A stretch of DNA of 10,108 nt from Escherichia coli (GCF_003334335.1 NZ_QOWQ01000065.1); one strand, 5' to 3'. Shown: positions 8,128 through 8,832, numbered from the stretch's first letter. Program-made: numbers and translations. Notes: generated by a model not told the origin, from the letters alone.

Positions 8128-8366
8128 AGAAAGCCCCTCCGGAGAGGGGCTAAAGCCGCGTATCTGTATCATCATGCACATGGTGCCGGGTGCCTCCCGG
8201 TGAGTTCAGCCCGGTGCCACTAAACCCGCGTCATTCTCGTTTTGATAATCAGAGATTATACCGTCACCAGTCGCCCCTCCGCTCAGGGGGATTCACCATG
8301 CGAAATTTTTTTAACAAATGCCCAGTCTGACAGGCAACTGTCAACTTACTGAATTGTGAGCAACAT
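8128..8366 (-). repeat. Copy A of a ~210-240 bp hairpin-rich non-coding repeat
   Basis: Shares with copy B the ordered blocks AAGCCCCTCCGGAGAGGGGCT, CATGGTGCCGGGTGCCTCCCGGTGA, GCCCCTCCGC..AGGGGGATTCACCATGC, TTTAACAAA, CAAC.GTCAAC, CTGAATTGTGAG. On the minus strand the unit ends with GCCCCTCTCCGGAGGGGC + TTTCTTATGG (terminator-like). Minus strand also carries consensus TTGACA and TATAAT hexamers, but about 90 nt apart, so they do not form one promoter. Confidence 0.6.
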
Positions 8367-8624
8367 AGCATTTAACGGGGAACCTGTTTTCTGCAGTAAA
8401 AAGGCCCACCGGAGCGGATGGGCCTGGAAGGATAGCGGTCATGTGATGCCGGTTTCCCGGTAACTCAGCACCGGTATCTGAGTCAACGTTTTCTCTACTG
8501 GGTCATTTCCGATACGCCCTGCCTGCTGACAGGCTTTCATCACATCTGAAAATATAGCACCCTGACTGATACTGTAGTACCTAAGGTTCCAGAAACTGTG
8601 ATGTATCCGGCACAGAAAAGCCCC

Positions 8625-8832
8625 TCCGGAGAGGGGCTGGAGAGTGGCGCTATGTGCCATTGCATGGTGCCGGGTGCCTCCCGGTGAATTCAGTACCAGC
8701 ACCTGAATCCGCGATTATCCCATATACCTACTCGCTGATTGCCCCTCCGCACAGGGGGATTCACCATGCCAGTTTCTTTTAACAAACTCCCCGCAAACCA
8801 GACAACAGTCAACCGCCTGAATTGTGAGACAT
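8625..8832 (-). repeat. Copy B of the same repeat, immediately downstream of the tRNA cluster
   Basis: Same ordered blocks as copy A, roughly 75-85% identical by eye (not computed). Ends on the minus strand with GCCCCTCTCCGGAGGGGC + TTTTCTGTG. About 260 bp of unrelated sequence, with another hairpin (GGCCCACCGGAGCGGATGGGCC, 8406..8427), separates the two copies. Confidence 0.6.

Follow-up and report, generated by a model that had tools for sequence, protein, structure and literature searches.

Likely Tandem Small RNA Genes of the STnc100/PasD Family in the Late Region of a Lambdoid Prophage of Escherichia coli

We consider it likely that three tandem elements in a lambdoid prophage of Escherichia coli are independently transcribed small RNA (sRNA) genes of the STnc100/PasD family that act as their Hfq-associated relatives do. 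The DNA analyzed (NZ_QOWQ01000065.1; the whole stretch of 10,108 nucleotides is hereafter called the window) is the late region of this prophage, and many complete E. coli genomes contain prophage DNA that matches it with 100% identity. The evidence consists of membership in a curated RNA family, a covarying fold, the prophage context, and promoter-like sites at a conserved position. The elements belong to an RNA family that is already described, and the repeats are not a discovery; the new details are only a cryptic third paralogue, the tandem arrangement in a slot without stx genes, the placement of promoters and 5′ ends, and the identity of the convergent partner.

Two Repeats and a Diverged Third Copy

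The three units are as follows.

8611..8828, minus strand: STnc100 copy B, entire unit with upstream conserved block, promoter-like site, RNA, and terminator (Rfam RF02076 and our model R1)
8395..8559, minus strand: middle diverged member, from the extended −10 element through the RNA end (Rfam, R1, and folding)
8124..8360, minus strand: STnc100 copy A, entire unit including the promoter region (Rfam RF02076 and R1)

A preliminary description of this DNA had reported two diverged copies of a structured element at 8128–8832. Both are real, and their extents were approximately right; we refine them to 8828..8611 and 8360..8124. Pairwise BLAST aligns copies A and B colinearly as a single HSP (70.6% identity, 235 columns, E 5e-25), and all six motifs quoted in that description occur once per copy and in identical order, among them GCCCCTCCGGAGAGGGGC (8133 in copy A, 8620 in copy B), CCGGGTGCCTCCCGG (8186, 8670), GGATTCACCATGC (8289, 8757), TTTAACAAA (8310, 8778), and CTGAATTGTGAG (8349, 8817), with the A-to-B offset fixed at 468 nt in the upstream part. 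We also agree that this is not a recent duplication: the copies are old paralogues, each type of which is also found alone or recombined in other prophages.

A scan of the entire window with Rfam 15 assigns both copies to RF02076 ("Gammaproteobacterial sRNA STnc100," gathering threshold 47 bits), an existing curated family that the preliminary description had not recognized, although its emphasis on a role at the RNA level was sound. Copy A matches at 8330..8121 on the minus strand with 165.4 bits and copy B at 8798..8608 on the same strand with 136.3 bits, each over model positions 1–206, the full length of the model. Between them, at 8573..8386 on the minus strand, lies a third, strongly diverged copy that had escaped the preliminary description. 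Its RF02076 match (8569..8396, 30.1 bits, E 4e-5) appears at a permissive threshold and is under the cut-off of 47 bits, and this middle copy is a diverged relative of STnc100 without formal membership in RF02076. Our own covariance model, R1, which was built on 32 homologues, has exactly three matches in the window: copy B with 209.5 bits, copy A with 197.5 bits, and the middle copy with 42.5 bits (E 1e-9). When folded alone from its predicted 5′ end, the middle copy shows the architecture of the family (z = −2.72) with every helix differing in sequence, namely P1 AUGUGAUG/CAUCACAU, P2 GCCUG/CAGGC, P4 ACUCAG/CUGAGU, P5 CCGG/CCGG, and the terminator. Given that it keeps all helices with different sequences, we regard it as a diverged paralogue and not as debris.

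A Conserved and Covarying RNA Fold

Homologues were collected from 120 viral contigs fetched with an exact 21-mer of the element, which gave 146 family matches in 64 clusters; this 21-mer spans P5 and the 3′ strand of P1, so that invariance there in the primary copies is partly by construction. RNAalifold, applied without a prior structure to a MAFFT alignment of 32 sequences, returns the Rfam helices P1, P2, a short P3, P4, P5, and the terminator. In this alignment 99.1% of the cells pair and 9 of the 35 pairs have changes on both sides; none of 500 shuffles reaches the observed values, and slid partners pair in 38–50% of cells. Among 68 distinct members, in an alignment that was fitted to model R1, 98.6% of the cells pair and compensatory changes occur in 27 of the 35 pairs (227 cells); shuffling again fails to match these values (0 of 500), and partners slid by 1–3 columns pair in 36–52% of cells. 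All three copies of the window fit a P1-closed junction with P2, P4, and P5 followed by the terminator, and the ∼130 nt of junction structure upstream of the terminator are conserved and covary. The claim that secondary structure is conserved despite sequence drift is thereby borne out. Single-sequence folding energies of copies A and B are no better than those of shuffles (z = −1.5 and −0.9), and for this reason we set them aside as evidence and let covariation carry the argument.

The compensatory changes also bear on whether the repeats act as DNA, that is, as a recombination module or a boundary of the lambdoid mosaic with no RNA function. The family is indeed multi-copy and mosaic: IMG/VR contig L101 combines a B-type 5′ part with an A-type middle, and IMG/VR contig L077 an A-type middle with a B-type 3′ end. 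Against a purely DNA-level role stand the compensated pairs, the transcription of relatives, and an orientation relative to the late genes that does not change among the annotated loci compared (the window, Stx2 phage F004, phage 2B8, and prophage PP2 of E2348/69), and we regard such a role as very improbable.

Conservation is unevenly distributed along the RNA. The most conserved blocks are UGGUGAAUCCCCCU..GCGGAGGGGC and ACCGGGAGGCACCCGGCACCAU, which remain so in 23 copies without the fetching pattern; all lie inside or beside helices. Single-stranded regions vary most. Two parts are hypervariable, one lying between P2 and P4 and the other being the linker that precedes the terminator, and both occur in discrete, recombining versions. 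The most conserved parts are thus paired elements of the junction and not a single-stranded seed, and no direct target has been validated for any member of the family; together these leave room for a scaffold or decoy function. The P1/P2/P5 junction would then bind one particular partner, either a protein or an RNA, and act as a decoy, sponge, or tRNA-like mimic instead of through canonical seed pairing, with the variable segments as passengers or specificity loops. If this were true, the hypervariable segment and the linker would be exchangeable specificity cassettes shuffled among prophages by recombination, and the three-gene array would be a diversified set on one scaffold. We nevertheless find this reading rather improbable: no candidate partner is known, Rfam finds no similarity to other structured RNA families at E ≤ 1, and the relatives described below are reported to crosslink to Hfq and to form RIL-seq chimeras with many mRNAs.

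Prophage Context and a Convergent sRNA

The preferred reading, that of tandem sRNA genes, agrees with the position of the array, which lies on the late strand of a lambdoid late region before the esterase and lysis genes, as STnc100 does. The flanking features are as follows.

8874..9123, minus strand: three phage tRNA genes (CAT anticodon, Arg-TCG, and Arg-TCT) upstream of the copies (ARAGORN, Rfam, and RefSeq)
8842..8859, minus strand: terminator at the end of the tRNA cluster, adjacent to copy B on its upstream side (terminator scan)
7939..8120, plus strand: convergent partner sRNA, with terminator stem 8092..8113 and U7 at 8114..8120 (homology and terminator scan)
6045..7898, minus strand: SASA-family carbohydrate esterase of the NanS-p/YjhS type, the downstream late gene (ORF list and RefSeq annotation of an identical locus)

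Along the late strand of NZ_CP024155, the order from the upstream end is a Q-like antitermination protein, an IS66 insertion, a DNA methyltransferase, tRNA-Ile(CAT), and two tRNA-Arg genes; then come 750 nt with the three copies, which are unannotated, the SASA-family esterase, a holin, YdfR, a lysozyme, and a lysis protein. The first phage tRNA (9048–9123, minus strand, CAT anticodon) is called Met by ARAGORN and tRNA-Ile of the lysidine type by PGAP, like ileZ of Stx phages. Stx2 phage F004 has the backbone Q, three tRNAs, stx2A, stx2B, an annotated STnc100 ncRNA (208 bits), a convergent AsxR (88 bits), yjhS, and holin, and copy A with its flank up to the esterase start codon aligns with F004, colinear with the STnc100 that follows stx2B. 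Because the window and F004 share this backbone, the array occupies the "moron" slot, which contains the toxin genes in Stx phages.

Facing copy A on the plus strand, the sequence 7939..8120 is 92.9% identical over all 182 nt to the enteropathogenic E. coli (EPEC) RIL-seq sRNA E2348C_1409.E2348C_1408.IGR, whose homologues in enterohemorrhagic E. coli (EHEC) are EcOnc08/21/42. Some 3 nt separate the end of this sRNA, which has a strong terminator, from that of copy A; the sRNA runs antisense to the esterase 5′ UTR. AsxR and AgvB were considered as the convergent partner and rejected: 7900–9200 holds no match to RF02703 or RF02702 at E ≤ 1, and the AsxR of F004, as a control, scores 88 bits. The same dyad of an STnc100 and this convergent sRNA is present in prophage PP6 of E2348/69. 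The PP6 copy (L125, 758–1002) is a B-type STnc100 without the promoter block, and a 63-nt insertion breaks its 5′ part, which comprises the 5′ strand of P1 and P2; it may be a decayed gene, though it is paired with an intact convergent sRNA. Within the region antisense to the plus-strand sRNA, the esterase 5′ UTR carries a further terminator-like hairpin on the late strand (8008–8023, minus strand; CTGCGCAACTGCGCGG then TCTTTTTCG), which is conserved in F004.

Downstream of the esterase gene, the spacer before the holin gene (5896–6044) contains a minus-strand terminator immediately after the esterase stop codon (AGCCATCAGTACTTAACTGGTGGCT then TTTTTT) and is conserved in 35 fetched loci. PasA and PasC, which occupy this slot in EPEC, were sought there and rejected: neither BLAST nor a fuzzy probe gave a match to PasA, and PasC gave none.

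Promoters, 5′ Ends, and Terminators

Each unit carries a promoter-like site and ends with a terminator-like hairpin.

8776..8805, minus strand: promoter-like site of copy B, with −35 TTGTCT (8805..8800), an 18-bp spacer, and extended −10 TGT-TAAAAG (hexamer 8781..8776), from sequence and family position
8619..8638, minus strand: terminator hairpin of copy B, then UUUUCUGU (terminator scan; the stem covaries in homologues)
8559..8551, minus strand: extended −10 element of the middle copy, TGC-TATATT
8425..8402, minus strand: terminator of the middle copy
8308..8337, minus strand: promoter-like site of copy A, with −35 TTGCCT (8337..8332), an 18-bp spacer, and extended −10 TGT-TAAAAA (hexamer 8313..8308), from sequence and family position
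8132..8151, minus strand: terminator hairpin of copy A, then UUUCUUAU (terminator scan; covariation)

An alignment of upstream flanks reveals a near-invariant TTTGTTAAAA ∼6 nt before P1 and TTG(C/T)CT 18 bp farther upstream, and the −10 elements of the units end 4–7 nt ahead of helix P1. Diverged members of the family have clear sigma-70 sites at the same position (TTGAC(N)-N17/18-TAnnnT), examples being TTGACT-N18-TATTTT, TTGAAA-N17-TGT-TAAATT, and TTGACG-N18-TACATT. Over 41 upstream regions that are mutually less than 80% identical, the best promoter score 4–10 nt before P1 averages 8.1, compared with 5.9 at random anchors in the same loci, and the score at the P1 anchor is in the top 5% in 22 of these 41 regions. 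A simple promoter scan called no minus-strand promoter in the region, because the conserved final T is missing from the −10 hexamer in both copy A (TAAAAA) and copy B (TAAAAG). The published coordinates of PasD2 (741157–741328) place its start at the G of GCATGGTGAATCC, where P1 begins, with TTGACT-N18-TAAAAA upstream; the start of this 172-nt RNA had been derived from RNA-seq coverage and its size on northern blots (PMC8550237).

For the window, we predict 5′ ends near 8769 (copy B), 8545 (middle copy), and 8301 (copy A), which would give RNAs of ∼157 nt (∼8769–8611), ∼150 nt (∼8545–8395), and ∼177 nt (∼8301–8124), respectively. The Rfam model begins ∼30 nt upstream of the predicted 5′ end. 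Upstream of the P1-proximal promoter-like sites, at 8339–8376 and 8807–8840 on the minus strand, is a further conserved block composed of (TG)TTAAAT, CTCACAATTCAG, N4, and GTTGAC. This block (TGTTAAAT...TCACAATTCAG...GTTGAC) is restricted to the E. coli subfamily, being absent from PasD-type and diverged members, and it may represent either a regulator site or a second promoter of the extended −10 type.

At the predicted 5′ end lies the AUG of GCAUGGUG, which is nearly invariant, and a small protein (MVNPP...) might be translated from it, possibly from a leaderless mRNA; some STnc100 copies of EDL933 have high ribosome coverage, up to 3.2 (PMC5331693). Other EDL933 copies, however, have a ribosome coverage of 0.04–0.2 (PMC5331693). 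Reading frames from this AUG range from 10 to 62 codons with unrelated C-termini (11 codons in copy A, 25 in copy B), the first codons are conserved as nucleotides with synonymous sites included, and one member has AUA, offset by a compensating change in the P1 partner. We rejected this candidate as close to refuted on account of its variable lengths and unrelated ends, and the earlier statement that no ORF is conserved between the copies holds, since the frames differ in both length and ends.

Each copy had been said to end, on the minus strand, with a GC hairpin and a U-run. The hairpins are confirmed; in copies A and B the U-runs are short and broken by other nucleotides (UUUCUUAU and UUUUCUGU), weaker than typical Hfq-binding modules. 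The region has 10 terminator-like sites where 2.9 are expected from shuffles, and in the ∼850 nt upstream of the esterase gene the late strand has five such hairpins, all of them before the esterase and lysis genes: that of the tRNA cluster (8859..8842), one for each of the three sRNA units, and the hairpin at 8023..8008. Terminators are read through by lambda Q-modified RNA polymerase. The main function of the array might be in cis: its intrinsic terminators, stacked one after another, would insulate the esterase and lysis genes from upstream promoters in the lysogen and be overridden by Q-modified polymerase, the RNAs being by-products. The abundance of hairpins favors such a stack, as does its conserved position between PR′/Q and the lysis cassette. 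A 3′ hairpin alone would suffice for insulation, yet the upstream junction covaries; every unit also has a promoter-like site, and relatives accumulate and bind Hfq. As a primary function we consider insulation unlikely, and it is only as a primary function that it competes with the sRNA reading, with which it is otherwise compatible.

Two further roles that the preliminary description had suggested find no support here. We found no feature of a late-operon attenuator: a single fold is conserved, no leader ORF is conserved, and each unit has a separate promoter-like site. For an antitermination-related site we found no Q or N utilization feature, and over 1 kb separates the array from the Q gene and PR′.

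Published Relatives

The homologues of the window copies are discrete, Hfq-associated RNAs of uninduced cells (PMC5331693, PMC8550237, PMC4104026), which together with covariation and the promoter-like sites upholds the original proposal of function at the RNA level as a small RNA. EDL933 has 11 copies of STnc100, all transcribed without induction, one of which (STnc100_4) has been verified by northern blotting (PMC5331693). The STnc100 that follows stx2B overlaps the Hfq-crosslinked EcOnc27, which is the same as sRNA103 (PMC4104026, PMC7873438), and overexpression of EcOnc27/sRNA103 raises the fimZ and espA transcripts (PMC12711010, PMC7873438, PMC4104026). At this site at least eight Sakai prophages carry "convergent sRNA dyads" (Tree et al. 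2014; PMC4104026, PMC7873438). Copies A and B share with STnc100/EcOnc27 the fold, the orientation, and the position immediately upstream of the NanS-p/YjhS esterase gene, and copy A, like EcOnc27, is paired with a convergent sRNA, which for EcOnc27 is AsxR and for copy A is of the EcOnc08/21/42 type and not AsxR/AgvB. The loci differ in that EcOnc27 is a single copy after stx2AB, whereas the window has three tandem paralogues with no stx genes ahead of them, and the hypervariable segment and linker differ from those of the stx2-linked STnc100. The AsxR/AgvB dyads likewise have a sense STnc100-type sRNA facing a short sRNA of the antisense strand between a moron and a conserved late ORF; AsxR and AgvB themselves are opposite-strand sponges of 51–60 nt whose sequences are unrelated to the STnc100 copies of the window.

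PasD1 and PasD2 of EPEC are abundant RNAs of 172–173 nt whose stability on northern blots is reported to depend on Hfq and that have many RIL-seq partners (PMC8550237); in the pasD rows of Table S2 of that study, RNA-seq abundance in the hfq mutant is not lower (PMC8550237). Their proposed seed lies in the linker from P1 to the terminator, with RIL-seq chimeras at the 3′ 50 nt, and the seed motif has weak MEME support (PMC8550237). PasD and STnc100 have been described as structural homologues (bioRxiv 10.64898/2026.05.13.724894). Our searches confirm this homology: RF02076 matches the pasD locus of phage 2B8 with 38 bits, below the cut-off, and R1 matches PasD2 over the full model with 43.6 bits. 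PasD1 and PasD2, whose EHEC homologue is EcOnc13, have in common with the window copies the fold, the 5′ 26–42 nt (GCAUGGUGAAUCC...), the promoter position, and a site between Q and the esterase gene; unlike them, the window copies lack the linker with the proposed seed UGUGAG. BLAST of PasD2 against the window aligns the first 26–42 nt only (79–83% identity), and similarity along the whole RNA, seed linker included, was not found by this search.

Lambda 6S RNA and StxS resemble the predicted RNAs in being short, terminated transcripts of the late strand that Q-modified polymerase reads through, and StxS is an Hfq-binding sRNA. Both begin at PR′, just behind Q, and include a qut site, in contrast to the window copies, which lie beyond the methyltransferase and three tRNA genes, have promoter-like sites of their own, and share neither sequence nor fold with 6S/StxS.

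Proposed Function

Based on these comparisons, we posit that a sigma-70-type promoter in each unit would drive transcription of an RNA of ∼150–177 nt starting at GCAUGGUGAAUCC. This RNA would fold with P1 closing P2, the hypervariable segment, P4, and P5, followed by the variable single-stranded linker and the intrinsic terminator. By homology to EcOnc27/sRNA103 and PasD1/2, the RNAs would be made in the lysogen, probably depend on Hfq, which they would bind, and base-pair in trans with host and island mRNAs, the linker and the hypervariable segment giving each paralogue its own choice of targets. The linker differs among all three copies of the window, and the paralogues therefore probably have different targets. 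In addition, the stacked terminators may act in cis, stopping transcription from the tRNA and sRNA promoters before it enters the lysis genes until Q-modified polymerase passes them on induction. Locating the promoter and 5′ end at P1 by comparison, and distinguishing a conserved junction from variable single strands, could be useful for designing experiments on this widespread family of prophage sRNAs.

Distribution and Annotation

A 1.3-kb query has partial matches in 3338 of 5426 complete E. coli genomes and matches over at least 80% of its length in one place in 341. Sequences like copy A occur in 353 phage records, mostly of Stx-converting phages. The middle copy is present in 673 of the 5426 complete genomes, including that of the type strain, and in 5 phage records; in the genomes it takes the form of two variants (at least 99% and ∼91% identity), and 14 of the 15 records listed for these genomes leave the matched stretch unannotated. 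The strong–weak–strong triple recurs in two viral contigs (L104 and L073), and two IMG/VR contigs (L013 and L008) have longer arrays of 4–5 copies. The RefSeq annotation of the identical locus includes none of the three STnc100 genes and no convergent sRNA. The value for annotation is modest, consisting of unannotated genes in the arrangement found in 341 genomes and a middle copy that escapes the Rfam threshold.

Elsewhere in the window, between the lysis genes and terminase remnants (1946–3575), are two convergent, overlapping genes annotated as "beta family protein" (1946–3013, plus strand) and "sce7726 family protein" (3575–2955, minus strand), a pair that could be moron or defense cargo.
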